From contig CAVSAG010000002.1 in the NCBI GenBank assembly GCA_963725905.1, positions 804,962-868,961 on the forward strand: 64,000 nucleotides of DNA, given 5' to 3'. Both the position numbers and the translations under genes were made by a program. The notes beneath the pieces were generated by a model that made no database searches, was not told where the DNA came from, and worked only from the letters and a program-made list of their open reading frames with translations. The DNA comes from an uncultured Pseudomonadota bacterium. GTDB taxonomy: Bacteria; Myxococcota_A; Polyangia; Fen-1088. Shown one piece after another: positions 15,000 through 46,433 of the stretch (position 1 is the first letter of the stretch; each line of letters opens with the position of its first letter).

Positions 15000-17900
15000 C
15001 TAACGGTTGATCGGTGGCGATTGTTCCCGCTGTTCCAGTGAATGTACGTCGAGCGATGAAATGCGACCGGAGTCGGCCACGCCGGTCTCGAGCGCGGTCA
15101 GCGTCGCGACCGCGCGCTGTTCGAGCAGGTAGGCGCCCTGACTGCGCGCGATGTCGATGGCCTTGCGCAAGTGGGCCTTGGCCTCCTCGGTCTCCCCGCT
15201 CGCCTGCAGCAGCAGGGCGCTTCGGAGACGGTGGAGCTCGGCGTCGCAGTTGTTCTCGCCGTTGGCTTCGGAGTAGCGGAAGGCGTCTTCGAGGACGCCC
15301 AACGCTTCCAAGGTCAGCCCGGACCTCGCCAGCAGGTCGGCCAGGCCCCAGCGCGCGTGAACGAAGTTCATGTGGGCGCCGCAGCTCTCGTATTCCCGGA
15401 TGCCGATCTCCATTTCGGCGCGGCCCGAGGCGAGCTCGCCCAAGCGAGCGCGGGCCCAACCGCGGTAACACCGGGCGGCGCCGACATAGAGCTGGAACCC
15501 TTCGTCCTGCGCCAGCGCCAGCAGACGGCCCGAGGTTTCGAGCAGGCTGGCGGCGTCTTGGCGCCAGTAGGAGAGCTCGGCCGAGAGACTCAGGTGAACC
15601 GCCGTGCTCGGGGGATGCCCCAACTGTGCGACGAGATCCCGACCCTGCGCGAGGGCGTGAGCGGATTCCTGCGGTCGTCCCTCCAGCGCCAGGCCGATCG
15701 CCTGGATTCCCCACATGACCGTGGTCGACGAGAGCTGAGTGATGCCGACGATGGCCTGCTCCTGCTCCAGCGAGAAGAGACGGCAGCCCTCGTCCGCGTG
15801 GCGAAGCGCCGACGACAGATCGCCCAGATAGAAAAGGGTGAAGACCATGGCGTGCCGGGCCATGACGCCCAGGAGCGGGTTGCCGGACGCGTTGGCCAGC
15901 GCCAACACGCGCTCGGCCACCGAGAGCGCGCGGGTGATTTGCCCGCGGACGAGGTACGTCGACCACAGACCCCAGAGCGCAGGGAGAACGCTCTCGTGAG
16001 CACCGACCTCCTCGGCCAATTGCAGCGCCCGCCGACAGCTGTCCTCGACCTCGTGGGCCGCCCACCCGTTGATGGCCATGAACGCCGGTGCGATCGCGAG
16101 GTTCAATGCGAGCTCCGCGGCTTTGCGCTCGGGCGACGCGGGGGTCAGTTCCGTCAGCCGGAGGGCGCGTTTGAGGTGAGCGATCGCCTCCTGATTGGCG
16201 GAGCGCCCGAGCGCCAGCGCCCCGGCGCGTTGCCATTGCGACGCCGCACCGCCGACATCGCCGCCTTCTTCGAGGTGCGAGGCGAGAAGCTCCGGTCGAG
16301 CAGCCGCCACGTCGGGGAAGCGCTCCCGCAACGTGTCGGCGGTTCGCCGGTGATATTCGCGGCGTTTCGATCGGGCGAGGGACCCATATGCCGCATCCCT
16401 CACCAACGTGTGCTTGAAGGCGTAGTTGACCGGAGAAGACCCCGAGGAGAGCAGGAGGCCCGACGAGAGGAGCCGATCGAGATCGGGCCTCAGCCCCTCG
16501 TCCGAAACCGTCGACACGGCGCTCAGGAGGTCGCCGGAGAATTCGCGCCCAATGACCGATGCGACCTGAGCGATCCCCTTGGCCGTGCCCAGACGGTCGA
16601 GGCGGGCCATCAACCAATCCTGGAGCGTGACCGGCACGGATGCCGTCGCCCCGGCCGGTCGGACAGCCTCCGTGGCGGATCCCGTCTGCTCCCAGTTCGA
16701 GGAGGGCGCGCGTTACCTCCTCGACGAACAGCGGAAGGCCATCGGTCATTTCGTAGATGCGTGAGGCCAGTGCTTCGTCGGCCATCCGACCGGCGACGCC
16801 AGTGACCATTTCAGCCACCTGCTCTCGTCCGAGCGAGGCGACCTTCATCTCCACCACGGTAGCCGGACCGGCCCAGGGTGCTTGGAATTCAGGCCACGCC
16901 GTCAGGCCGACCAGCACGCGAGACAGCGAGCCACGGACAACCATTTCAAGGACTTCGAGTGTCGTCGGATCCGCCCAGTGGAGATCCTCAATCGCCACCA
17001 GCACCGGGCCGTGAGCAGCCAGGCGTCGTAGCCATTCGACGATCGTCTCCAAAAGCAGGCGCCGCTGGCGCTGGGGAGTGATTCCGGCCCACGCCGCGGA
17101 AGCGTCCTGCGGGAGCGAGAGCAGAGCTGCGACAGCCGATATCTGCAAGCGCGACAGCCCGAGATTCGACATCCTCGCGCTCAACTCGGTCGCGACGGTC
17201 GCGACGTTCGCGATGTTCAATTGATCGGTCGTGATGCCGGCCCGCAACCACTGGCGCAGGAGCGAGACGATTGGATGGAGCGGGACGTTCTGATGCAGCG
17301 GAGAGCAATAGCCCTGTAGGACCGGCGCGTCACCCATCGTGACGTGGTTCTTGAAGACCTCGATGAGGCGCGATTTCCCAACGCCGGGCTCTCCGCGGAG
17401 GATGAAGACGGGACTCGCTCCGCTCTGCGCTGCTTGCCAGAAGTCGAGAAGGGTTGCCGTCTCCTCTTCCCGACCGACGAACGGCGTCAACCCAGATTCC
17501 CGGGCTGCCTCCAGCCTGGTCTGGGCGGCGGTCTCCCCGGTCACCAGATGAAGCTGGGTAGGGACCACACCCGAAAGGATCTTGTCGCCGGCGGGGCTGA
17601 AATGGAAGTATCCGGCCGCGAGCCGCCGTGTGCTCTCCGTGATCAACACCTGATTCGGTTGGGCCTCCGTTTGAACGCGCGCCGCGAGGTTCGGGGCCTC
17701 GCCGAACGCCAGCGTTTGTTCTCCTGCGCCGGGGCCAGTCGCTCCAATGACCACCAGCCCGGTGTGAATCCCGACCCGACAGGCGAGCTTGCTATTCCCA
17801 CCAACGAGGTTGGACACGCGACGGACGGTCTCGATGCCCGCGCAAATCGCTCTCCGGGCGTCGTCACCGTGCGCTTCCGGAAAGCCAAAATAGACCAGGA

Positions 17901-18153
17901 TCCCATCACCGAGGTACTGCGCGATATAGCCCCCGAAGGGCCGAATTGCCTCCGCGCAAGCCGTCTGATAGTCGCGGATGACGTCGCTGAATTCCTCGGG
18001 ATCGAGTTGGCGCGATAGCGCCATCGATCCGACGAGGTCGCAAAAGAAAACCGTCAAGTGACGGCGCTCGGACTCGCGTGACAACCGAGCACCACAGGCC
18101 CGGCACACACCACCACCGCCGGGGTTATCGCTGTTGCAGTTAGGGCAGAGCAC
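15000..18153 (-). CDS. zinc-ribbon / class III adenylate-guanylate cyclase / AAA ATPase / TPR signalling protein; frameshifted near 16640-16700 in this sequence
   Basis: N-terminus CPNCNSDNP...CRAC zinc ribbon. Cyclase homology domain HLTVFFCDLVGSMALS. P-loop GEPGVGKSRL. Conserved PVTLQDWLMARLDRLGTAKGIAQVASVIGREF plus TPR region in the other frame (ORF 15000..16637). Confidence 0.75.
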
Positions 18154-18162
18154 CGCTATCCC

Positions 18163-18642
18163 TCATGCGACGTTGACGACCAAAAGGGTGGGAACTGAGT
18201 TCCCCTCACGGGTTCCAAGCAGCCCAGCGTATCGACCGGGGGGAACGCCAGTCGGGACCGAGACTCGCGCTCCCGCGAGACTGCTCCCCATCGCAGGGAT
18301 TGTCAGCGATTGAGGATCGAAAGAGACGCTGTCGGCGTCGATGAGATCGCCCGCTGCGCTTACGAGGTCACTGGAAGCGAGGTGGACAGAGTGGTCTTGC
18401 TGGCCACTGTTGGCCACGCGAAAGGGGACGCTTGCAGTCTCGCCTGGGCGCCGACTGATCGCCGAACAAACGAAGCCCGGGAAACCCCGGCTCGGATCTG
18501 CGTCGGTGATGAGCGCAGCACCAGGCGACGACGGGCCTACAACCGCCTTCGCGCCGTTCATCACGGCAAGAACGCGCTCAGCAATTCCTTTTTCCGCCCC
18601 TGCCTCCCCGATCTCGGTCGGGGCACGATCGGTCGCCGCCAT
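18163..18642 (-). CDS. hypothetical protein (CARDB-like beta-sandwich motif) in a lower-GC patch
   Basis: ASVPFRVANSGQQ...SVSFDPQSLTIPAMGSSLAGARVSVPTGVPPGRYAGLLG. Codon usage is atypical (third-position A/T) and start assignment is uncertain. Confidence 0.3.
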   Translation of the reverse strand: MAATDRAPTEIGEAGAEKGIAERVLAVMNGAKAVVGPSSPGAALITDADPSRGFPGFVCSAISRRPGETASVPFRVANSGQQDHSVHLASSDLVSAAGDLIDADSVSFDPQSLTIPAMGSSLAGARVSVPTGVPPGRYAGLLGTREGNSVPTLLVVNVA

Positions 18643-18803
18643 GCGCTCGCTCGCTATCTTCCTGAGCTGGACGAAGCGGACAGTCGCACAATGGAGCGCG
18701 CAAACGCAAGTGGCGTAGCGGTGCGCTCCGAGAATCGGTTGCTCGCAGACGCCTACCGATCGCAAACGCAGGTTTCATCGTCTGCGGCATTACAAAAACG
18801 AAT

Positions 18804-20213
18804 CTACGGTTCGTTTGCGCCCTTGCCGCCGCCCGAAGCAGCCCCGCCCGACAGCCGCTTGTCGAGCTCCTTGAACCGCTCCGCCAGCGCCACGACGAAC
18901 AGGCCGAAGGAGGTGTGCAGGCCCAGGTTCTCCTCGAGGAGCTGGCGCGGGACGACCTTGACCAGGACCTCGTCGACGGCCTCCACGGTGGCGGTGCGGA
19001 CGCCGCCCGAGAGGACGGCCGTCTCGCCGAAGACCGAGTTGGGGCCGAGCTCGCGCAGCACCACCTTCTGGCCGTCGACGGTCTTGTAGGCGACACAGGT
19101 GCCGCGGACGATGATGTAGGCGCAGTCGCCCGGGTCGCCCTCCGCGACGATGCGGTCGCCGGGCGGGAAGATCTCCGCGCTCAGCGGAAAGCCGCGCATG
19201 GTCGTCTCGATGTCCTTCTTGCATCTCGTCGACCGTCTGGTAGCGGTCGCTTCGGATCGCGCGCCATCGCCCGCTTGACGATCCGGCACAGGCCGATGGG
19301 CAGCGGCGCGGTCGGATCGCCGGGCGGGAAGGTCACCACGCAGGCGGTCGCCTTGTCGAGGCAGGTGGCGAGATCGTCGGAGTCGAACGGCGGGACGGCG
19401 GTCAGGATGTTGAAGAGGACGGCGCCCAGGCCGAACACGTCGGTGCGCTGCGTCGAACTGGTCGCGCGCGCCGATCGCCTGCTCGGGCGACATGAACGAC
19501 GGCGTGCCGCACGGGCCGCCGCCCGCGTCGAGGTTGGCTTCGCCGGCGACCACCAGCAGCGGCAGCTCGTTCGGCAGCGCCCGGGTCGGCCCCACGATCG
19601 CCAGCCCCCAGTCGACCAGATAGACCTGCCCGAACGGCCCGACCAGGATGTTCCCCGGCTTGATGTCGCAGTGGAGGACGCCGCGGCTGTGGGCGAAGGC
19701 GACCGCCTCGCAGACCTTGAGAAAGGCGGCCATCATGTCGCTGAGCGTCTCGGAGAAGCCGGCCTGTCGACCCGCGCGGGCGATCCAGTCGGCCAGCGTG
19801 TCGCCCTCGATCCGCTTCATCGTGAAGTAGCGGTTCCCGGAGCGGTCGGTCCCGATCTCGTAGACGGGCGCGATGTTGGGGTGATCGAGCTGGGCGGTGA
19901 TCTGCGCCTCGCGCACGAACCGCTGCACCTCGCGCGGCCGGCGGGCGAGATCGGGCGCCAGCACCTTCATCGCCGCGATCCGCAGGAGGCCCAGATCGCG
20001 GACGGCGTGGACCGAGCCCATCCCGCCGGCGCTGATCGGCGAGAGGTACTGATACCGATCGGGCACGCTCTGTTGCGCAGAGGCGTCGGCGACGGCTCCG
20101 GGGGACGGGGCGGCGCCCGCCTCTCCGCGAACCCTGGTCACCTGATCGCCGCTGATGGTCTGCCTCCCACGCGAGCCTGTCCGCAGTCGACCACATCTGT
20201 CGGTTGGGCGCAA
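18804..20213 (-). CDS. Ser/Thr protein kinase fused to a C-terminal cyclic-nucleotide-binding domain; two compensating frameshifts (kinase C-lobe lies in ORF 19181..19438)
   Basis: YQYLSPISAGGMGSVHAVRD...HCDIKPGNILV...DWGLA...GTPSFMSPEQ. Then GLGAVLFNILTAVPPFDSDD...RIVKRAMARDPKRPL in the other frame. Then cNMP-binding FGETAVLSGGVRTATVEAVDEVL. Confidence 0.75.
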   Translation of the reverse strand: MRPTDRCGRLRTGSRGRQTISGDQVTRVRGEAGAAPSPGAVADASAQQSVPDRYQYLSPISAGGMGSVHAVRDLGLLRIAAMKVLAPDLARRPREVQRFVREAQITAQLDHPNIAPVYEIGTDRSGNRYFTMKRIEGDTLADWIARAGRQAGFSETLSDMMAAFLKVCEAVAFAHSRGVLHCDIKPGNILVGPFGQVYLVDWGLAIVGPTRALPNELPLLVVAGEANLDAGGGPCGTPSFMSPEQAIGARDQFDAAHRRVRPGRRPLQHPDRRPAVRLRRSRHLPRQGDRLRGDLPARRSDRAAAHRPVPDRQAGDGARSEATATRRSTRCKKDIETTMRGFPLSAEIFPPGDRIVAEGDPGDCAYIIVRGTCVAYKTVDGQKVVLRELGPNSVFGETAVLSGGVRTATVEAVDEVLVKVVPRQLLEENLGLHTSFGLFVVALAERFKELDKRLSGGAASGGGKGANEP

Positions 20214-36496: not shown

Positions 36497-37699
36497 ATGC
36501 CCAGTTCGACGACCCCCACGACCACCCCGACCCCCGAGCGCGTTCACATCTTCGACACCACCCTCCGCGACGGCGAGCAGGCCCCCGGTTGCAGCATGAA
36601 CATGGGCGAGAAGCTGCGCATGGCCGCCAAGCTCGCCGAGCTGGGCGTCGACATCATGGAAGCGGGATTCCCCATCGCCTCGGCGGGCGACTTCGAGGCG
36701 GTGCAGAAGGTGAGCCGCGAGGTGGCGGTGAAGGTCGCCGCGCTGGCTCGCGCCACCACGCTGGACGTCGAGCGCGCCGCCAAGGCGCTGGAGGGCGCGA
36801 AGGTGGCGCCGCGGATCCACGTCTTTCTGGCCACCAGCGACGTCCACCTCAAGTACAAGCTGAAGAAGACGCGCGCGCAGGTGCTCGACGAGGCGGCGGC
36901 CGCCGTCGCGCTGGCCCGCAAGCACGTCGCCGACGTCGAGTTCTCGGCCGAGGACGGCGGGCGGACGCCCGTCGAGTACCTGATCGACGTCTCGCGCGCG
37001 GTCGTCGCCGCCGGCGCCACCACGGTCAACATCCCCGACACCGTCGGGTACGGCGTCCCCGAGGAGTACGGCGCGCTCATCGGCCAGGTGGCGCGCGCTC
37101 TCGGCAAGTCGGCCATCGTGAGCGTCCACTGCCACAACGATCTCGGGCTGGCGGTCGCCAATTCGCTCGCCGCCATCCAGAACGGCGCGCGCCAGATCGA
37201 GTGCACCGTCAACGGGATCGGCGAGCGGGCCGGCAACTGCTCGCTCGAGGAGATCGTGATGGTCTTGAAGACCCGCGCCGATCGGCTGCCGTACACGACC
37301 GGCATCGTCAGCGAGCAGCTCTATCCGGCGAGCCAGCTCCTGACCGAGATCATCGGCGTCGGCGTGCAACCGAACAAGGCGATCGTCGGGGCCAATGCCT
37401 TCGCACACGAGGCCGGCATCCACCAGGACGGGTTCCTCAAGGAGCGGACCACGTACGAGATCATCGAGCCCAAGAGCGTCGGCGTGCCGGAGAGTCGGCT
37501 CGTTCTGGGCAAGCACAGCGGCCGGCACGCGCTCGGCGATCGCTGCAAGGCGCTCGGCCTGGCGCTCGACAAGCCCCAGCTCGACGAGCTCTACACGCGC
37601 TTCACGGCGCTGGCCGATCGGCAAAAGGGGATCACGGACGATGAGATCCGGGCCCTCGCCGGCGAGGCCGTCAAAAGTTTGACAAGAAAAATAGCGTAG
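36497..37699 (+). CDS. leuA: 2-isopropylmalate synthase-like (HMGL-like TIM barrel + subdomains) lacking the C-terminal LeuA_dimer regulatory domain
   Basis: [15 protein letters not shown]...[17 protein letters not shown]...[25 protein letters not shown]. Last codons (AAA AGT TTG ACA AGA AAA ATA GCG TAG) are AT-rich and run into an AT-rich island. Confidence 0.8.
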
Positions 37700-37750
37700 T
37701 TTTAATTACTTAAACGAAGTAAGAAAAGTTTGTAAGTCCGCTAAAGCACT
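37672..37750. repeat. AT-rich (about 30% GC) 80-bp island with two direct repeats AAAAGTTTG(A/T)NAAG, at the 3' end of leuA
   Basis: Repeat copies at about 37673-37686 and 37724-37736; composition is atypical for a 70% GC genome. Confidence 0.5.
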
Positions 37751-37776
37751 AGCGGCAGGCCACCGATGCTTCATTC

Positions 37777-38625
37777 ATGGTGGCGGAACGTGTGGCCCGA
37801 AGCCTGGGTGTTCTGTGCCTGGCAACCAGCGCTCTTTCGTGCGCGGGGTCGGGCGAGGCGACGGACGCGCCGATCGGCATCGCGGCCGTCGTCGACAACG
37901 GCCTGTCGGCAAACGGCCTGTCGGCGAACGGTCTGTCGGCCAATGGGCTGTCGGCGAACGGTCTGTCGGCCAACGGGCTGTCGGCGAACGGCCTGTCGGC
38001 CAATGGGCTGTCGGCGAACGGCCTCTCCGCCAACGGGTTGACCGCCAGCGGTCTTCTGGGCGGTGGCTCGACGGCGCTGACCGATCCGATGATGCAGCAG
38101 GTCCTCAAGTACATCGTCTCGTGCGCGCTCGGTCCGGAGCAGAGCCTCACGTTCACCGCGGCCGGTAAGGCCTACAGTTTCCCCGGTCAGCTGGGCCTGG
38201 CGCCGCAGTGGGGCGGCGACCACGGGGTGTGTGACGGCTCGTGCCAGCGGTGGGTCTCGGCCTGCCTGCTCGCCCGCGTCGACGCCGCGGGGATCGACCG
38301 CGAGATCTCCATCCGCGGACCCAACCTCGCGCTGCTGCCGACCTGGAGCGAGCTCGCAGGCTACACGCAGCGCGAGGCGACCTACTTCGGCAACATCTTC
38401 ATTCCCGGACAGCCGCGCTACCTCTGCTTGCCGCCCGGGCAGAGCGGGGACCAACGCGTCTGCGGCGACTCGATGAGCGACTGCCCGATGACGGTCCTCC
38501 CGTCGTGCGCCAAGGCCTGCGCTTTCCAAGGGCTGTTCGGCGACTTCGACCTCTGCAGCGATTCGGGGAAGTTTGGCAAAGGCCAGACCTACTTCGAGAG
38601 CGTCACGGTCTTTCTGCCCAAGTAG
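37777..38625 (+). CDS. lipoprotein with 11 pentapeptide (NGLSA) repeats and Cys-rich C-terminal domain
   Basis: MVAERVARSLGVLCLATSALSCAG lipobox. DNGLSA(NGLSA)x9 NGLTASGLLG. C-terminal domain with about 12 Cys. Confidence 0.7.
   Translation: MVAERVARSLGVLCLATSALSCAGSGEATDAPIGIAAVVDNGLSANGLSANGLSANGLSANGLSANGLSANGLSANGLSANGLSANGLTASGLLGGGSTALTDPMMQQVLKYIVSCALGPEQSLTFTAAGKAYSFPGQLGLAPQWGGDHGVCDGSCQRWVSACLLARVDAAGIDREISIRGPNLALLPTWSELAGYTQREATYFGNIFIPGQPRYLCLPPGQSGDQRVCGDSMSDCPMTVLPSCAKACAFQGLFGDFDLCSDSGKFGKGQTYFESVTVFLPK
37897..38061 (+). repeat. 10-11 near-perfect tandem copies of a 15-bp unit (AACGGNCTGTCGGCN) encoding NGLSA
   Basis: Direct reading of the sequence; variants differ only at wobble positions. 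Confidence 0.85.
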
Positions 38626-38632
38626 GCGCGGC

Positions 38633-41600
38633 GTGATCGAGCGGGTCGTCGCCGGGCGGTTCCACCTTCTCGCCGAGGCCGGCGCGGGAGGGATGGGCGC
38701 CGTCTACCGCGCGCGCGATCTCGCCACCGGCGCGACGGTGGCGGTCAAGATCCTGACCGGCCGCGAGGCGCGCGAGGCGCAGCGGTTCGATCAGGAGGCC
38801 GCGATCCTGGCCGGGCTGGTTCATCCGGCCATCGTCCGTTACATCACCCACGGCGTCGCCGACAGCGGCGCGCGCTACATCGCCATGGAGTGGCTCGACG
38901 GCGAGGACCTGGCGGCGCGGCTCGCGCGCGAGCACCCGACCGTCGCCGAGACGGTGGCCATCGCCCGCCGCACGGCGGAGGCGCTGGCCCACGCGCACCG
39001 GGCGGGGGTCGTTCACCGCGACATCAAGCCGGGAAACCTGTTTCTCCCCGGTGGCGCCATCGAGCGGCTCAAGGTGCTCGACTTCGGCATCGCGCGGCTC
39101 ACCAGCGCCGCGCGAAAATTGACCCGCACCGGCTCGGTGATAGGCACGCCCGGCTACATGGCGCCCGAGCTCGTGCGCGGGGCGCGCGACATCACCCCGC
39201 GCGCCGACGTCTTCTCGCTCGGCTGCGTGATGTTCCAGTGTTTGACCGGCCGCGCGGTGTTCGAGGCCGAGGCGCCGACCGCGCTCTTGGCGAAGATCCT
39301 GCTGGCCGATGCGCCGCGCGTGCGCGATCTGGCGCCGGAGATCCCGGCGGCGGTCGACGACTGCGTGGCGCGCATGCTGGTCAGGGAGCCCGAACGGCGG
39401 CTCGCCGACGCGGCCGCCGTACTGGAGGCGCTGGGCGCGCTCGGTCCCCTCGGCGCCGGGCGCGCGGGCGGCGGCCTGCGCCCGGGCGCGCCGACCGCGG
39501 CGCTCACCGCGAGCGAGCGGCGGATCGCCTGCGTCGTCATCGCCGGACCGTCGGTCACCGGCGAGCGGCGCTGGAGCGGCGAGACACCGCCGGCCCGGCA
39601 GCCTGACGCGTGGATGGAGCCGGGCTCTGCCCGGCGGAGTCCATCGCATACTACAGACGAGGAGGTGGTCATCGCCGGGCAGCTGCGGCGGCTGGTCGCG
39701 ATCGAGGAGGAGCTGGTCCGCCAGCACGGCGCGCAGGTTCATCCGCTGCCCGACGGTTCGCTGGTGGTGTCGCTGCCCGAGCAGGAGCGGGCCACCGACC
39801 AGGCGGCGCGGGCGGCGCGCTGTGCGCTGGCGATGCGCAGCGCGCTGCCGGGCGTGGCGCTGGTCGTCTCGACGGGGCAGGGGCGCTTCGCGGCCTGGTC
39901 GGCGGTCGGTGCGGTGATCGACAACGGGATGCGTCTTCTGCGCGGGACGCCGCCGGGGGCGATCCGCCTCGATGACGTGGCCGCGGGGCTGCTCGACGCG
40001 CGCTTCGACGTCCGGCGCGAGGGGACCGCCCCCTACCTGCGTGCCGAGCGCGACGCGTTCGGCGTGCAGCGCCAGCTGCTCGGCAAGCAGACGCCGTTCG
40101 TCGGGCGCGGCCGCGAGATGTCGATGCTGACCAACCTCTATGCCGGCACCGTCGCCGAGTCGGTCGCCACGCCGGTGCTGGTGATCGGCTCGGCGGGCGC
40201 CGGCAAGTCGCGGCTGCGTCAGGAGCTGTGCGAGTGGGTGCAGCGGCAGCCCGATGGTGCGGAGGTTCTGTTCGGCGGCGTCGACTCGGTGGCGGCGGGG
40301 GCGCCGTTCGCCATGCTCGCCCGCGCCATCCGGCGGGCGGCCGGGATCGTCGACGGCGAGCCGCTCGAGGCGCGGCGCGACAAGCTGGCGGCGCGGGTCG
40401 CGCGTCACGTCGATCGCGAGGCGCGCGAGCGGGTCACCGAGTTCCTGGGGGAGATCGCCGACGTCCGTTTCGCGGACGGCAGCGAGGCGCTGCGGACGGC
40501 GCGCGGCAACCCGCAGCTGATGGGCGACGGCATGCGCCGCGCGTTCGAGGACTGGCTGGCGGCCGAGTGCGCCGCCCACCCGGTGCTGCTGGTGCTGGAG
40601 GATCTGCACTGGGGCGATCTGGGGACGGTGAGCTTCCTCGACGGCGCGCTCCGCAACCTTCACGATCAGCCGCTCCTGGTGCTGGCCCTGGCCCGTCCCG
40701 AGGTGGACGAGCGGTTCCCCGACGTCTGGACGGCGCGCCACCGCCAGACGATCCGGCTCGGCCCGCTCTCGCCGCGCGCCAGCGAGCAACTGGTGCGGCA
40801 GGCGCTGGCGGCGATCGGCGACGAGCTCCTGGCGCGGATCGTCGAGCGCGCGGACGGCAACCCCTTCTACCTCGAGGAGCTGATCCGCGCGGCGGCGGCC
40901 GGGCGCGCCGACGCGCTCCCCGACTCGGTGCTGGCGATGGTGCAAGCGCGGCTCGACGCCGAGGGGGGCGACGGCAAGCGGGTGCTGCGCGCGGCGGCGG
41001 TCTTCGGCGAGCGGTTTTCGCGCGCGGGGTTGGCGGCGCTGCTCGGCGGCGCGACCGGGATCGACGACGTCGCCGATGCGATCGAGCGACTGCTGGCGCG
41101 CGAGCTCTTCGCCCGGGCCCAGGCGCCCGCCCTCGAAGGGGACGTCGAGCTGATGTTCGCGCACGCGCTGGTCCGCGAGGCGGCCTATGCGATGCTCACC
41201 GACGAGGACCGGCTGCTTGGCCACCGGCTGGCGGGCGCCTGGCTGGAGCAGACGGGCGCCGCCGACGCGATGGTCCTGGCCGAGCACTTCCGGCGCGGAG
41301 ACGAGCCGGCGCGCGCGGCGCGCTGGTACGACCGGGCGGCGGCCCAGGCGCTCTCGGCCAACGACTTGTTGGCCGCGATCGACCGGGCCGAGCTGGGGCT
41401 CCGGGCTGGCGCCGACGCCGAGCTGGCGGGGAAGCTGCGGCTCATCGCGGCCGAGGCGCACGTCTGGCGCGGCGAGCTCGCCGAGGCCGAGCGCCTGGCC
41501 CTGGCCGCCGCCGCCGATCTCCCGGCCGGCGGCGCCGCCTGGCTGCGCGCGCTGGCGCAGGCGATCCTCGCGTCGGGCAAGCACGGCCGGCTGGAGAGCG

Positions 41601-42622
41601 TCGAAGAGCAGGTCCGGCTGGTCGAGAATTCGCCGCTCACGGCCGATCCGGCCGTCCGCAGCGCCCGGATCATCTCGCTGGCGTGGGGCGCCCACTTTCT
41701 GGTCTTCGGCGGGCGATACGCCATCGCCGATCCGCTGATCGCGGCCATCGGCGCGCTGGCGGGCGAGCGGGACGCCGCGCTCGATCCGCAGGCGCTGGGG
41801 CTCCTGCATCAGGTGCGGGCGGTACGGGCCTCCGCGGCCGGAGATCTCGGGCGCTGCTTGAGCGGCCTCGAATCGGCGCTGCAGGCGTTCGAGCAGGCGG
41901 GCGACCTGCGCAACGCCTGCGCCGTCCGCAACAACCTCGGCTACATGTACTCGGAGCTCGGTGACTTCCAGCGGGCCGAGGCGGCGCTGCGCCAGGCGCT
42001 CTCCGCCTGCGATCGGATGGGGCTCCACGATCTCTCGGCCGCCGTGCAGCACAACCTCGGGCGCGTCCTCGGCTTCGGGGCCGAGCTGGGGGAGGCGGAG
42101 CGGCTCGAACGGCTGGCCATCGAGGCGCTCCGCCGGCAGGGTGAACCGCGGCTCGAGGGGTTGGCGCGCGTCTACCTGGCCGAGATCCTGATCGCGCGCG
42201 GGGACTTCGCCGGCGCCGCCGGCGAGGCCTCGGCGGCGATCGCGGCGCTGGCGATCGCGCCGGCGATCCGGGTCGCGGCGCTGGGCGCGCTGGCACGCGC
42301 GCGGCTCGGCGGCGGCGATGCCGGCGGGGCGCTGGCGGCCGCGCGCGAGGCCCACGCGGCGCTCGAGCGGCTGGGCGAGATCGAGGAGGGCGAGTCGATC
42401 GTGCGGCTGACCTACGCCGAGGCGCTGGCGGCGGCCGGCGAGCACGCGCAGGCCCACGCCGCGCTGATCGTCGCCCGCGCGCGCCTCCTGGCCCGCGCCG
42501 AGCGGGTCGCCGACCTCGACTGGCGCCACCGCTTCCTGCACGAGGTCCCGGTCAACGCCCGCATCCTCGCCCTGGCCGCCGCGCCGCCGCAGCCTCCGAC
42601 GCGTTCGACCGCCGCCGCCTGA
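38633..42622 (+). CDS. Ser/Thr protein kinase / AAA ATPase / TPR multidomain (STAND-type) signalling protein
   Basis: Kinase motifs GAGGMGAVYRARD, VAVK, HRDIKPGNLFL, DFGIA, GTPGYMAPE. P-loop GSAGAGKSRL. Long TPR-like C-terminus. GTG start at 38633, 8 nt after the upstream stop. Confidence 0.85.
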   Translation: MIERVVAGRFHLLAEAGAGGMGAVYRARDLATGATVAVKILTGREAREAQRFDQEAAILAGLVHPAIVRYITHGVADSGARYIAMEWLDGEDLAARLAREHPTVAETVAIARRTAEALAHAHRAGVVHRDIKPGNLFLPGGAIERLKVLDFGIARLTSAARKLTRTGSVIGTPGYMAPELVRGARDITPRADVFSLGCVMFQCLTGRAVFEAEAPTALLAKILLADAPRVRDLAPEIPAAVDDCVARMLVREPERRLADAAAVLEALGALGPLGAGRAGGGLRPGAPTAALTASERRIACVVIAGPSVTGERRWSGETPPARQPDAWMEPGSARRSPSHTTDEEVVIAGQLRRLVAIEEELVRQHGAQVHPLPDGSLVVSLPEQERATDQAARAARCALAMRSALPGVALVVSTGQGRFAAWSAVGAVIDNGMRLLRGTPPGAIRLDDVAAGLLDARFDVRREGTAPYLRAERDAFGVQRQLLGKQTPFVGRGREMSMLTNLYAGTVAESVATPVLVIGSAGAGKSRLRQELCEWVQRQPDGAEVLFGGVDSVAAGAPFAMLARAIRRAAGIVDGEPLEARRDKLAARVARHVDREARERVTEFLGEIADVRFADGSEALRTARGNPQLMGDGMRRAFEDWLAAECAAHPVLLVLEDLHWGDLGTVSFLDGALRNLHDQPLLVLALARPEVDERFPDVWTARHRQTIRLGPLSPRASEQLVRQALAAIGDELLARIVERADGNPFYLEELIRAAAAGRADALPDSVLAMVQARLDAEGGDGKRVLRAAAVFGERFSRAGLAALLGGATGIDDVADAIERLLARELFARAQAPALEGDVELMFAHALVREAAYAMLTDEDRLLGHRLAGAWLEQTGAADAMVLAEHFRRGDEPARAARWYDRAAAQALSANDLLAAIDRAELGLRAGADAELAGKLRLIAAEAHVWRGELAEAERLALAAAADLPAGGAAWLRALAQAILASGKHGRLESVEEQVRLVENSPLTADPAVRSARIISLAWGAHFLVFGGRYAIADPLIAAIGALAGERDAALDPQALGLLHQVRAVRASAAGDLGRCLSGLESALQAFEQAGDLRNACAVRNNLGYMYSELGDFQRAEAALRQALSACDRMGLHDLSAAVQHNLGRVLGFGAELGEAERLERLAIEALRRQGEPRLEGLARVYLAEILIARGDFAGAAGEASAAIAALAIAPAIRVAALGALARARLGGGDAGGALAAAREAHAALERLGEIEEGESIVRLTYAEALAAAGEHAQAHAALIVARARLLARAERVADLDWRHRFLHEVPVNARILALAAAPPQPPTRSTAAA

Positions 42623-42659
42623 TTCGCCTCTCACGAATCGTCACATCTCCGGCGGCACC

Positions 42660-43770
42660 AACATCCGCGCAATCAAGGTCGAGCCGTCCGCGCGCCGACG
42701 CGCCCAACCCATCGGCGTCCCGGCGCAGACGACCGCACCCCCGCCGAATCAAGTCACGCGAGCGCCGCGGTCCCAGCGGAATCAAGTCGCGCGGTCGCCG
42801 CGGCGATTCGGCCGCCCACCACGCAACCCGCCGCGGTCCGCGCCCGACAACGGGACATGCGCGGAATCAAGACGGTGCGACGGCGTCAGCTCAACTTGCC
42901 CCTCGGGGCGCCACGCACCTGGGGTGGCGCTCGCAAGGGCGCCGGGCGGAAACCCCGCGGCCGTGCCTCGATGCCCCACGACACGCGGCCGAAGGTCGAT
43001 CCGCGATACCCGGTGCAGGTCACCATTCGCGCGACGCCGGGGCTGCCGTCGCTGCGCTCCCCCCGGCTGTTCGGGGCGCTCCGGCGCGCCATCGCGCGTG
43101 CGTCGGTCGACCGGTTCCGGGTGATTCACTTCTCGATCCAGCAGGACCACGGCCACTTCATCGTCGAGGGGGACGAAGCCCGGCGCGCCCGCGGGGGTAT
43201 GCACGGCCTGGCGATCCGCCTGGCGCTGGCAGTCAACCGCGCCCTCGGGCGCAAGGGGCAGGTCGTCGGCGACCGCTACCACGCGCGCCCGCTGACCACG
43301 CCGCGCCAGATGCGGACCAGCATGGTTTACGTGCTGCTCAACTTCCGCAAGCACCTCCGGGCGCCCGCGTGCATCGACCCGCGCAGCTCGGGGCCACAGT
43401 TTTCGGGGTGGCGGCGCGCGCCCGCGAGCGCCGACGCGATCACCCCCGCGATCACCGGCGCGATCACCGGCGCTCCTTCGGCGACGGCGTCGCCTGCCAC
43501 CTGGATGGCGCGCGTCGGATGGAGGCGCGCGGGCGGTCTGTTGCGGGTCGACGAGCACCCCGCCTCGGCGCCGCGCGCGCACCCAACTTGAATCCGCGGA
43601 TGTTGCCCGGCGCGGGCCGCAGCCACTTGAATCGCGGATGGGTCGCGGCGGGTCGCCCGCCTCGAGCGCGCCTGAAGCCGAAGGCGGCTTGAATCCGGAC
43701 GGCAGCGCTGAAGGCAGGGACGGGAGCGCTTGAAGGCGGGAAGGCATTTGAAACTTCTGCGCGGGCGACT
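42660..43770 (+). mobile_element. IS200/IS605-like (Y1 HUH) RAYT-type transposase with flanking REP-like repeat arrays
   Basis: Transposase CDS 42857..43591 flanked by 4 upstream copies of GAATCAAG(T/A)C and 3-5 downstream copies of CTTGAA(T/G)C. Confidence 0.45.
42857..43591 (+). CDS. REP-associated tyrosine transposase (IS200-like, PF01797 Y1_Tnp)
   Basis: PRYPVQVTIRATPGLPSLR...RFRVIHFSIQQDHGHFIVEGDE (HxH of the HUH motif)...YHARPLTTPRQMRTSMVYVLLNFRKH. Confidence 0.8.
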   Translation: MRGIKTVRRRQLNLPLGAPRTWGGARKGAGRKPRGRASMPHDTRPKVDPRYPVQVTIRATPGLPSLRSPRLFGALRRAIARASVDRFRVIHFSIQQDHGHFIVEGDEARRARGGMHGLAIRLALAVNRALGRKGQVVGDRYHARPLTTPRQMRTSMVYVLLNFRKHLRAPACIDPRSSGPQFSGWRRAPASADAITPAITGAITGAPSATASPATWMARVGWRRAGGLLRVDEHPASAPRAHPT

Positions 43771-43791
43771 ATGCTGCGCCACGAACAACTC

Positions 43792-44607
43792 ATGGCCACC
43801 GTCGACGTTCCGCTCAAGAGGGTCCGTTTCGGCCACACCGCCCGCAAAGATGCCTGGTGGGTCATGCCGCTGACGACGTTCGTGGTGTTTTCCGCGTTCA
43901 TCGTCTACGTCACCTGGGCGCTGTTTCAGGGGGAGAACTACAGCTACGGCAACTACCTGTCGCCGCTCTACTCGCCGGAGCTGTTCGGCAACTCGCCGCA
44001 CGCCTGGTTCGGCCCCTGGCGCTGGCCTTTCCTCCTCCCCTTCGTGCCCTTTATTAAATATTCGCCGGCGATGCTGATCCTGATCTTCCCGTTGGCCTTC
44101 CGCATGACCTGCTACTACTACCGCGGCGCCTACTACAAGGCGTTCTGGGCTGACCCGCCCGCCTGCACCGTCGGCGAGCCGCGCGACGAGTACCGCGGCG
44201 AGCAGAAGTGGCCGCTGCTCATCCAGAACGTGCACCGCTACGCGCTCTACTTCGCGCTCGTCTTCATCGTCCTTCTGTCGATCGACGTGGTGAAGGGGTT
44301 CATCTTCAACAACCCCAAGACCGGCCAGGCGACGTTTGGGATGGGCGTCGGGTCGCTGGTGCTGCTCCTCAACGTCGTGCTCATCGCCGGCTACACGCTC
44401 GGCTGCCACTCATTCCGCCACCTGGTGGCCGGGGTGATGGACACTTTTTCGAAGTCACCGTTGCGCAAGAAGGCCTACGACTGCGCGAGTTGCCTCAACC
44501 GGCACCATCCGAAGTGGGCCTGGTGCTCGCTGATCTGGGTCGGGCTCACCGACGTCTACATCCGCCTCTGCGCCAGCGGCGTCATCACCGACCTGAGGAT
44601 CTTCTAG
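43792..44607 (+). CDS. sdhC: succinate dehydrogenase / fumarate reductase cytochrome b subunit (b558 family, 5 TM)
   Basis: Polytopic membrane protein immediately upstream of sdhA with a 2-nt gap; conserved His in TM helices; alternative start at 43771. Confidence 0.7.
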   Translation: MATVDVPLKRVRFGHTARKDAWWVMPLTTFVVFSAFIVYVTWALFQGENYSYGNYLSPLYSPELFGNSPHAWFGPWRWPFLLPFVPFIKYSPAMLILIFPLAFRMTCYYYRGAYYKAFWADPPACTVGEPRDEYRGEQKWPLLIQNVHRYALYFALVFIVLLSIDVVKGFIFNNPKTGQATFGMGVGSLVLLLNVVLIAGYTLGCHSFRHLVAGVMDTFSKSPLRKKAYDCASCLNRHHPKWAWCSLIWVGLTDVYIRLCASGVITDLRIF

Positions 44608-44609
44608 CC

Positions 44610-46433
44610 ATGCCCGTTCACGAGACCCACGAGCACGACGTTCTGGTCATCGGCGCCGGCGGCGCCGGCCTGCGCGCGGCCATCGAGGCCTCGGCCACCG
44701 GTGTGTCGGTCGGCCTGGTCTGCAAGTCGCTGCTCGGCAAGGCCCACACCGTCATGGCGGAGGGCGGGATGGCGGCGGCGATGGCGCACGTCGACGACCG
44801 CGACAGCTGGAAAGTCCACTTCGCGGACACCATTCGCGGCGGCCAGTACCTCAACAACTGGCGGATGGCGGAGCTGCACGCCAAGGAGGCGCCCGATCGC
44901 GTGCGCGAGCTCGAGGCCTGGGGCGCCGTCTTCGATCGCACCAAGGACGGCCGCATCCTGCAGCGCAACTTCGGCGGCCACCGCTACCCGCGCCTGGCGC
45001 ACGTCGGCGATCGCACCGGCCTGGAGATGATCCGCACGCTGCAAGACCACGGCGTCCACCAGGGCTTCAAGGTCTACATGGAGCACACGATCACCAAGCT
45101 GTTCGTCGACGCCGGCCGGATCGCGGGCGCGTTCGGCTATGACCGGGAGCGCGGCAACCTGCGCGTCTTCAAGGCCAAGGCGGTCGTGCTGGCCACCGGC
45201 GGCGTCGGCCGCGCCTTCAAGATCACCAGCAACAGCTGGGAGTACACCGGCGACGGCTACGCGCTGGCCTACGACGCCGGCGCCGACCTGATGGACATGG
45301 AGTTCATCCAGTTCCACCCGACGGGGATGGTCTGGCCGCCGTCGGTCAAGGGCATCCTGGTGACCGAGGGGGTGCGCGGCGAGGGGGGCGTGCTGCGCAA
45401 CAAGGACGGCAAGCGCTTCATGTTCGACGAGATCCCAGACAACTACAAAGCGCAGACGGCCGACAGCGAGGAAGAGGGCTGGAAGTATACGCAGGGGGAC
45501 AAGAACTCGCGCCGGCCGCCCGAGCTGCTCACGCGCGACCACGTGGCGCGCAAGATCATGAAAGAGGTGCGCGAGGGGCGCGGCAGCCCGCACGGCGGCG
45601 TCTTCCTGGACATCGCCTGGATCAAGTCGCGCGTCCCCGGCGGCGCCGAGCACATCAAGAAGAAGCTCCCCAGCATGTATCACCAGTTCAAGGAGCTGGC
45701 GAACGTCGACATCACCGAGGTGCCGATGGAGGTGGGGCCCACCACCCACTACACGATGGGCGGCGTGCGCGTCGACGGCGACACGCAGATGTCGACGGTG
45801 CCGGGGCTGTTCGCGGCCGGCGAGTGCGCGGCTGGCCTCCACGGCGCGAACCGGTTGGGCGGCAACTCACTCTCCGACCTCCTGGTGTTCGGCAAGCGCG
45901 CCGGCGAGCACGCCGCCAAGTTCGCGCGCGAGCGCGGGCCCGTGAGCATCGACGCGACCGCCATCGACGCGGCCGAGCGGGTGGCGCTGGCGCCGTTCGA
46001 GCGGGCGGCGGCCGGCGGCGAGGCCGAGGCGCCCTACAAGATCCAGTACGAGCTGCAGGATCTGATGCAGGAGAACGTCGGCATCGTGCGCAACGACGCC
46101 GACATGCGCAAGGCGGTCGAGGGGATCCAGGCGCTCAAGGCGCGCGCGGCCAAGATCGCCGCCGGCGGCAACCGCGAGTACAACCCCGGCTGGCACACGG
46201 CGCTCGATCTCGCCAATCTGCTGACCTGCGCCGAGGTGATCGCGACGTCGGCGCTCGAGCGCAAGGAGTCGCGCGGCGGCCACTTCCGCGAGGACCACCC
46301 GGACAAGGATCCGAATTTCGCCACCTTCAACCACGTCGTGCGCAAGGGGGCAGGGGGACGGGCCGATCTGCGGCGCGAGACGATCCCGACTCTGCGCGAC
46401 GATCTCAAGCAGGTCGTCGAGGAGAACAAATAA
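44610..46433 (+). CDS. sdhA: succinate dehydrogenase / fumarate reductase flavoprotein subunit
   Basis: DVLVIGAGGAGLRAAIEA...covalent-FAD region...HYTMGGVRVD...RESRGGHFRED; ATG at 44610; the upstream 130 aa of the track ORF is filler. Confidence 0.9.
   Translation: MPVHETHEHDVLVIGAGGAGLRAAIEASATGVSVGLVCKSLLGKAHTVMAEGGMAAAMAHVDDRDSWKVHFADTIRGGQYLNNWRMAELHAKEAPDRVRELEAWGAVFDRTKDGRILQRNFGGHRYPRLAHVGDRTGLEMIRTLQDHGVHQGFKVYMEHTITKLFVDAGRIAGAFGYDRERGNLRVFKAKAVVLATGGVGRAFKITSNSWEYTGDGYALAYDAGADLMDMEFIQFHPTGMVWPPSVKGILVTEGVRGEGGVLRNKDGKRFMFDEIPDNYKAQTADSEEEGWKYTQGDKNSRRPPELLTRDHVARKIMKEVREGRGSPHGGVFLDIAWIKSRVPGGAEHIKKKLPSMYHQFKELANVDITEVPMEVGPTTHYTMGGVRVDGDTQMSTVPGLFAAGECAAGLHGANRLGGNSLSDLLVFGKRAGEHAAKFARERGPVSIDATAIDAAERVALAPFERAAAGGEAEAPYKIQYELQDLMQENVGIVRNDADMRKAVEGIQALKARAAKIAAGGNREYNPGWHTALDLANLLTCAEVIATSALERKESRGGHFREDHPDKDPNFATFNHVVRKGAGGRADLRRETIPTLRDDLKQVVEENK

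Follow-up and report, generated by a model that had tools for sequence, protein, structure and literature searches.

A gene in the window analysed here (the whole stretch of 64,000 nt, from an uncultured bacterium of the Polyangia lineage Fen-1088, assembly GCA_963725905.1, contig CAVSAG010000002.1) encodes a lipoprotein-type precursor in which a tandem array of five-residue repeats precedes a Cys-rich C-terminal domain, and the number of these repeats differs between closely related copies of the gene. The best-supported reading is a size-variable lipoprotein stalk of a distinct repeat class, placed under an undescribed but widespread domain. In its full form, to which we assign a probability of roughly 0.55, our explanation is that the product is a length-adjustable, lipid-anchored stalk for a disulfide-rich extracytoplasmic domain and is associated with a Ser/Thr kinase. 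A protein identical to the 282-residue product of the open reading frame (ORF) exists in public data (P0001). The parts of the gene, with confidence of structure prediction given as the predicted local distance difference test (pLDDT) where relevant, are:

37777..38625 (+): whole ORF, 282 amino acids and stop codon; putative lipoprotein precursor with repeat stalk and Cys-rich domain (ORF reading, codon-by-codon reading)
37777..37842 (+): predicted signal peptide with lipobox ALS-C, the Cys22 codon being 37840-37842 (PROSITE PS51257-style rule, invariant column)
37843..37896 (+): Gly/Pro/acidic linker, residues 23-40, ending in the conserved hydrophobic lead-in IAAVVD (A36 nearly invariant; pLDDT <50)
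37897..38031 (+): nine perfect NGLSA units of 15 nt each, in seven DNA variants (codon reading, Tandem Repeats Finder)
38032..38061 (+): degenerate terminal units NGLTA (38032-38046) and SGLLG (38047-38061) (codon reading)
38062..38622 (+): C-terminal domain, residues 96-282, about 185 residues with a confident fold from about residue 100 and 10 invariant cysteines (AlphaFold2, alignment)

The N-terminus, MVAERVARSLGVLCLATSALSC, fits a PROSITE PS51257-style lipobox rule ([LIVMFWSTAG](2)-[LIVMFYSTAGCQ]-[AGS]-C, with the preceding 6 positions uncharged, the Cys at one of residues 15-35 and a K/R close to the start of the protein), the corresponding features being SALSC, Cys22, R5 and R8 (lipobox ALSC in the 90%-identity cluster of the window protein). 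The same rule is matched by 119 of 150 full-length orthologues, and the Cys22 column is invariant in an alignment of 96 homologues (A1). These features support a lipoprotein-type precursor, which would be diacylglyceryl-modified and cleaved by signal peptidase II. The residue at position +2 after Cys22 is Ala in the window protein and G or A, never Lys, across the orthologues. As Lys at +2 marks inner-membrane lipoproteins in M. xanthus (PMC3222651), its consistent absence suggests that the protein leaves the inner membrane. The ten invariant cysteines of the C-terminal domain fit an oxidising compartment. Sorting to the extracellular matrix, for which Ala at mature position +7 is the cue in M. 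xanthus FibA (PMC3222651), was considered and rejected: the window protein has this Ala, but only 12 of 120 orthologues share it.

The array of NGLSA units that the original prediction had placed between lipobox and Cys-rich domain was confirmed, and consists of nine perfect units followed by NGLTA and SGLLG. The description of its DNA as near-identical 15-bp units was not borne out, as the nine peptide units are written in seven DNA variants that share 12-15 of 15 nt. Five columns vary among the nine DNA units, and all are third codon positions, so that every difference is synonymous. Tandem Repeats Finder reported a period of 15 (37896-38036, 9.4 copies, 82% matches), and fitted the same tract better with a period of 30 (4.7 copies, 90% matches). 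Synonymous codons were also observed to alternate between odd and even units (37896-38037); together with the 30-nt superunit fit, this suggests that the array was duplicated in two-unit steps. Exact homology within it extends over at most 14 nt at offset 15, 26 nt at offset 30 and 29 nt at offset 60. A search of the window with the pattern AAYGGNCTGTCGGC, allowing at most one mismatch, gave 8 occurrences, every one inside the array, against a chance expectation of 0.30 (a count of 8 was seen in 0 of 100 shuffles). At the end of the array, NGLTA is fixed among relatives and escapes homogenisation.

Comparison of copy number supported the predicted length variability of the locus, and the collected sequences support a length polymorphism at the population level. 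Among the 150 full-length orthologues the array ranges from 3 to 16 units with a mode of 9, which is also the mode among the loci of the DNA-level comparison, and we infer that a stalk length of about nine units is preferred under selection. Within 90%-identity clusters, protein lengths form series in 5-residue steps (272-302, 265-315 and 245-255). In sets of metagenomic proteins whose flanks are 100% identical, the arrays have 10, 11 or 15 units, 3, 8, 9 or 12 units, and 6, 7 or 8 units, the difference within such sets being 1 to 9 units. In the genome nearest to the window (L037, 89% nucleotide identity) the array is longer by one unit, and megabase contigs, presumably from long reads, hold 13 (L007), 11 (L017), 11 (L037), 10 (window) and 9 (L019) units. 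All observed length variants differ by multiples of 5 residues and keep the C-terminal domain intact. Since a 15-nt unit preserves the reading frame, gain or loss of units cannot switch the gene ON or OFF, and the phase variation that had been proposed is excluded as a result of unit slippage.

The repeats are near-perfect within each protein and differ between proteins (NGLSA, NGLTA, NALTA, NALSA, NGLAM, NGLIG, NSLMA, NALTM and others). A total of 27 majority unit types was found among the 150 orthologues, with 82% of the units of an array identical to its majority unit, and NGLSA and NGLAA arrays occur in proteins whose flanks are 95-96% identical. Asn is present at position 1 in 100% of the units and Leu at position 3 in 98%, with A, G or S at position 2. 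This pattern is one of concerted evolution under constraint on positions 1-3, with positions 4-5 homogenised within an array and drifting between lineages. Units compared with their array consensus in 41 arrays showed 347 synonymous and 86 non-synonymous differences, where about 1 synonymous per 2 non-synonymous changes was taken as the neutral expectation, and in 27 of the 41 arrays the interior units were free of any non-synonymous change. This excess of synonymous differences argues that the peptide unit is kept by purifying selection and not just by very recent expansion. The recent expansion originally read from the DNA identity is therefore only part of the picture: the repeats are alike, but their divergence is mostly synonymous and points to selection on the peptide as well as youth.

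The C-terminal domain was predicted with confidence by AlphaFold2 (pLDDT 81-95 for residues 100-282), and its invariant cysteines in the 96-homologue alignment are C116, C152, C156, C163, C217, C229, C236, C244, C248 and C260. It matched no Pfam or NCBIfam model, and Foldseek found no fold match in the PDB at E<1. Mean column identity over the domain is 72% in a second alignment (A2), and every full-length relative has the same domain plan. A search with the domain only recovered 399 proteins, all hypothetical, those with a labelled source being from metagenome bins of Polyangia (Myxococcota). Its profile, run against 1.84 billion representatives, matched 2018 clusters (defined at 50% identity) at E<=1e-3 and 1364 at E<=1e-10. 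In 93 of 135 distant representatives (those listed, of at least 200 residues), the domain follows an uninterrupted run of at least 3 N-xxxx pentads, with mostly G/A/S at position 2 and L/I/V/F/M at position 3 (e.g. NGITF, NALIS, NSLTT, NGVWD, NRLSL, NGFTQ and NSLTY). Longer members of 500-1460 residues add HYR, PA14, PPC, PKD-like, SBBP or RCC1-propeller domains after the N-terminal module, which fits an extracytoplasmic or surface location. In a genome scan the family was almost wholly confined to Myxococcota, with distant copies in Archangium, Hyalangium, Nannocystineae and Kofleriaceae.

Several proteins of the representative library that match the C-terminal domain (P0199, P0223, P0232, P0248 and P0271) carry repeats such as GERAD, HERPG or KGQSY; these look like the same DNA arrays read in the wrong frame, which would point to frameshifted assemblies or mis-called genes among public metagenome sequences. 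Distant homologues of 474-487 residues in Archangium lansingense (L046, 2749-4173) and Hyalangium sp. (L055, 2695-4158) have a signal peptide without lipobox Cys, retain the pentads only as degenerate traces and show a greatly expanded Cys-rich region; their genes are flanked by an AAA_16/TPR ORF on one side and a Ser/Thr kinase domain on the other.

The lipoprotein gene is followed on the same strand by a kinase gene, and is preceded by an AT-rich segment:

38636..42622 (+): predicted Ser/Thr kinase with AAA_16 and TPR, starting 10 nt past the lipoprotein stop codon (Pfam; conserved neighbour)
37670..37776 (+): AT-rich intergenic leader, presumed promoter or leader (conserved in alignment A4, 5 orthologous loci)

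The order of the locus is conserved, with superoxide dismutase, metallophosphatase and LysR regulator genes on one strand and the genes for an HMGL-like synthase, the lipoprotein and the kinase on the other. The kinase gene lies directly downstream in all orthologous loci with enough DNA; in one of them (L002) the called lipoprotein and kinase genes overlap by 4 nt. No terminator-like site was detected between the two genes in a terminator scan, and judged from this arrangement they are probably co-transcribed. In 17 distant loci (30-47% identity), a kinase domain occurs within 3 kb in 10, and in 5 of these it is directly downstream on the same strand (L044, L046, L049, L051 and L055); in Archangium an AAA_16/TPR ORF is directly upstream of the family gene. 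With kinases found about once per 32-90 kb, corresponding to a background of 0.15 per locus, this proximity is enriched (binomial p about 4e-5). PADLOC returned nothing for the lipoprotein and matched the kinase only to generic Ser/Thr-kinase models, e.g. PD-T4-6, and a defence-system reading was rejected on these grounds.

The leader is AT-rich in a window of 69% G+C and overlaps the end of the upstream HMGL-like gene. It contains the conserved blocks AAAATAGCGTAA, TTACTTAAA, GCTAAAGCACTAG and CGATGC in loci whose proteins are only 56-79% identical. A scan around the gene for promoters and terminators found neither, with no sigma-70 consensus site in the leader, and no Rfam family was assigned to the leader; the Rfam scan of leader and array gave only a chance match to mir-341, far under threshold.

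A right-handed pentapeptide-repeat beta-helix had been proposed for the array, and this fold is not supported by the searches and structure models. Pentapeptide-repeat proteins (Pfam PF00805 clan; MfpA, Qnr, Rfr32) share with the window protein a five-residue tandem period and a Leu and an Asn per unit, and their consensus is [STAV][DN][LF][STR][G] (bioRxiv 10.1101/2023.03.22.533729). The register of the array is instead N-[GAS]-[LIF]-x-x, and none of the 27 majority unit types fits the consensus in any of 5 rotations (best, 2 of 5 positions). With Leu taken as the central residue, Asn stands where pentapeptide-repeat proteins (A-[D/N]-L-x-x) have Ala, and a small residue where they have Asp/Asn. 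A Pfam scan of the window protein at E<=10 listed only GLTT and a sub-threshold Decapeptide match and no pentapeptide model, none of the Pfam pentapeptide families was matched in 18 relatives, and a search of PDB sequences at E<=10 matched no solved pentapeptide-repeat protein. The sole PDB match of the window protein was the DotG/IcmE repeat region (E 1.9e-8), and the family profile likewise found only DotG repeats (E about 0.9). AlphaFold2 with the 96-sequence alignment gave pLDDT 29-45 for residues 9-98, including the whole array, with no strands in the array, and a 69-sequence alignment for an orthologue with 15 units (P0028, NGLTS x15) gave pLDDT 28-38 and again no strands. The two groups also differ in that the window units are perfect, homogenised and copy-variable and would form an extracytoplasmic lipoprotein tether, as opposed to a cytoplasmic fold of the DNA-mimic type.

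The formal Pfam match above cut-off is to the GLTT repeat (PF01744; 49.7 bits against a gathering cut-off of 21, E 2.6e-13, 2 stretches), which shares the xGL[ST]x pentad and is a match at motif level only. The GLTT model is a short low-complexity motif without known structure or function, and relatives with units such as NALTA, NSLMA or NRLSL mostly miss it, so that membership is uninformative on mechanism. In the library searched, no paper was found on the GLTT repeat and none containing the repeat strings. The N-x-Phi-x-x register is a repeat class of its own, for which the present Pfam models have no label but GLTT; an Asn-ladder variant of a periodic fold is conceivable for it. An alpha-helical coiled-coil stalk was rejected, as Gly is commonest at position 2 and a 5-residue period would spread Leu over three helix faces. 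N-glycosylation sequons were likewise rejected, the motif of the array being N-x-L and not N-x-S/T.

Taken together, our proposed mechanism is that the protein would be exported and lipid-anchored, its disulfide-rich globular domain being held off the membrane by N-small-Leu-x-x pentads whose number would set the length of the stalk. Whole 15-nt units would be gained or lost through slippage or unequal recombination between units, so that stalk length would differ between strains at constant frame, while selection would maintain both the peptide motif, with Asn1 followed by a small and then a hydrophobic residue, and a modal array of about 9 units. Probable co-transcription with the cytoplasmic Ser/Thr-kinase/AAA_16/TPR protein suggests that the envelope function may be tied to a signalling protein. 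A more ambitious version, in which the N-small-hydrophobic-x-x array, as a periodic structural element not described before, and the undescribed 10-Cys domain would form a Myxococcota-wide extracytoplasmic module that works in envelope sensing with the adjacent kinase, unit number tuning reach or signal strength, appears distinctly unlikely as a whole; in this version the array element may be, e.g., an Asn-ladder solenoid, or may fold on oligomerisation or ligand binding.

Several observations weigh against our explanation. Kinases are abundant in these genomes, with 2 in the 64-kb window, and a gene order shared by orthologues within a single clade is weak evidence for a common function. By inspection, the kinase sequence has no recognisable export or membrane segment, so that a functional link to an exported lipoprotein would be indirect. 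Low AlphaFold2 confidence is no proof of disorder, and the invariance of Asn1 and Leu3 over thousands of clusters exceeds what a purely flexible spacer would need; the array may have a structure or serve as a recognition motif. Finally, all three proteins in the 90% cluster to which the window protein belongs are 282 residues long, without length variation, and many length variants come from short-read metagenome assemblies (k141 contigs), which are able to collapse or expand a 135-225-nt array, making the 3-unit variants suspect.

These last points are also what would be expected if the copy-number variation were an artefact of short-read assembly and the array were actually stable: most variants are from k141 MEGAHIT-type contigs, and arrays of 45-225 nt are close to read and k-mer length. 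However, the lengths always differ by exact multiples of 5 residues with intact flanks across dozens of independent assemblies, synonymous differences between units anchor assemblers, and the megabase contigs differ as well (9 to 13 units), which makes this extremely improbable. It could also be argued that the variation is real but neutral, i.e. that the array is a self-propagating in-frame minisatellite tolerated by a sequence-indifferent linker, with neither sequence nor length having a function. Copy number varying among proteins with identical flanks, the free drift of positions 4-5 between lineages and the predicted lack of structure would all agree with this. The ratio of synonymous to non-synonymous differences is, however, far from the neutral expectation, Asn1 and Leu3 are conserved throughout the orthologues, the N-x-hydrophobic motif recurs in the distant representatives, and copy number peaks at 8-9 units; we therefore regard a neutral array as very unlikely.

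The conserved positions 1-3 suggest a defined structure, and a right-handed quadrilateral beta-helix like that of pentapeptide-repeat proteins, forming a rigid stalk with its height set by unit number, would account for the five-residue periodicity and the conserved central Leu and Asn. If Leu is position i, S/T falls at i+1 in agreement with the consensus of pentapeptide-repeat proteins, and an internal ladder could arise from Asn at i-2; speculatively, the modal array, with 8 perfect units and one end unit, would amount to two full turns of four units. This fold nevertheless seems unlikely, given the lack of a consensus, Pfam or PDB match, the low pLDDT (28-45) without strands even for 15 units, and the existence of arrays of 3-6 units, too short for a stable helix. 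Even less probable is a contingency locus for a surface-exposed variable antigen or adhesin evading recognition, as the original prediction had suggested. In its favour are the in-frame size variation among close strains and the size-variable DotG repeats, suggested to reflect surface exposure (PMC6761968); the sole hint of a surface role is that longer family members combine the N-terminal module with HYR, PA14, PPC, PKD-like and beta-propeller domains, which are characteristic of surface or secreted proteins. The gene is, on the other hand, present in a single copy as a syntenic orthologue, in a chromosomal locus that is conserved and contains housekeeping-type genes, and is co-oriented with the kinase gene; a tblastn search within the window found no paralogues. 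Its unit cannot act as an ON/OFF switch, it is the membrane-proximal stalk that varies, whereas the distal domain is conserved, and the hosts are free-living soil Polyangia, so that immune evasion is inapplicable.

Among known systems, those closest to the proposed lipid-anchored stalk in their way of working would be outer-membrane lipoproteins with their N-terminal linkers, and repeat proteins of in-frame variable size such as DotG. Lipoproteins with a disordered N-terminal linker include LpoB. In RcsF, Pal and NlpD the linker, like the stalk, connects the lipidated Cys with the folded domain and is predicted to be unstructured. Outer-membrane lipoproteins commonly have a disordered N-terminal linker of this kind, and need it for sorting in E. 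coli (bioRxiv 10.1101/2021.01.05.425367), and their length matters for sorting or reach (bioRxiv 10.1101/2021.01.05.425367; PMC12826056). However, the linkers of RcsF, Pal and NlpD are aperiodic and poorly conserved, while the window stalk is strictly periodic, selected and length-polymorphic in whole units; the position of the stalk and its low pLDDT fit a disordered lipoprotein linker, but the constraint on positions 1-3 and the predominance of synonymous variation do not. The DotG/IcmE repeat region of the Legionella Dot/Icm system (Decapeptide, PF25296) belongs to an envelope protein and, like the window array, varies in repeat number by species or strain (PMC6761968). Its unit is a 10-residue [KR]-x-A-G-[FY]-[STND]-x-x-x-[LI] motif, its flanking domains are unrelated to those of the window protein, and the window protein scores below cut-off with both the Decapeptide model (25.6 bits against 45) and the NCBIfam DotG/IcmE model (22.6 bits against 750). 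The DotG repeat region is itself not a classical pentapeptide helix, according to the authors of a Dot/Icm model (bioRxiv 10.1101/2023.03.22.533729).

Size-variable tandem-repeat lipoproteins are also known from the mycoplasma Vlp and Vsa systems and other surface proteins with an in-frame variable number of tandem repeats, which are multigene, ON/OFF-switching and host-associated. They share with the window gene a lipoprotein with in-frame repeats whose number varies between close strains, and the copy-number polymorphism among near-identical alleles observed here, in data from metagenome assemblies, is the mark of such in-frame repeat loci. In Vlp and Vsa the repeats are the exposed bulk of the protein, whereas the window gene is single-copy, belongs to a soil bacterium and has its repeats in a membrane-proximal stalk under a conserved domain. 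A phase-variable contingency locus would have, inside the ORF, a unit whose length is no multiple of 3, or else promoter repeats; the unit of the window array has 15 nt and lies inside the ORF.

A few further observations were made around the kinase gene. Residues 291-480 of the kinase (39506-40075), between the kinase and AAA_16 domains, have no Pfam match and are 53-82% identical in most orthologous loci. The gap between the kinase and the next gene (42623-43770) is about 1.1 kb, compared with 35-160 nt in orthologous loci. It contains an ORF of 244 amino acids (42857-43591, +) with a weak match to a REP-associated tyrosine transposase (E 0.002, 18 bits against a cut-off of 80), flanked by imperfect inverted repeats (42659-42692 and 43572-43605), and the extra DNA may be a genome-specific mobile-element insertion. 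Beyond it, a hydrophobic 278-residue protein (43771-44607, +) without Pfam or NCBIfam match is encoded next to a gene at 44208-46433 (+), and orthologous loci have a FAD_binding_2/Succ_DH_flav_C flavoprotein gene at the position after this protein. The genes at 43771-46433 look like an operon of the succinate dehydrogenase or fumarate reductase type, unrelated to the lipoprotein. A second Ser/Thr-kinase domain is encoded at 16714-20075 (-), where the kinase domain, with 35% identity, and an AAA_16-like region, with 28%, are paralogous to the lipoprotein-adjacent kinase; no gene with the Cys-rich domain was found near it.

The locus offers a natural example of a stalk that changes its length by whole units between strains while its motif is under purifying selection, and separates repeat perfection that arises through selection from perfection that arises through recent expansion. 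It also illustrates that a five-residue period with Asn and Leu is insufficient to define a pentapeptide-repeat protein. Relevance to medicine or to antigenic variation is not evident. The 10-Cys domain, with more than 2000 clusters, mostly in Myxococcota, has neither a Pfam or NCBIfam model nor a Foldseek match in the PDB and is found repeatedly beside Ser/Thr kinase genes. It would thus represent a sizeable uncharacterised envelope family in the Myxococcota, for which a role in signalling provides a testable hypothesis.

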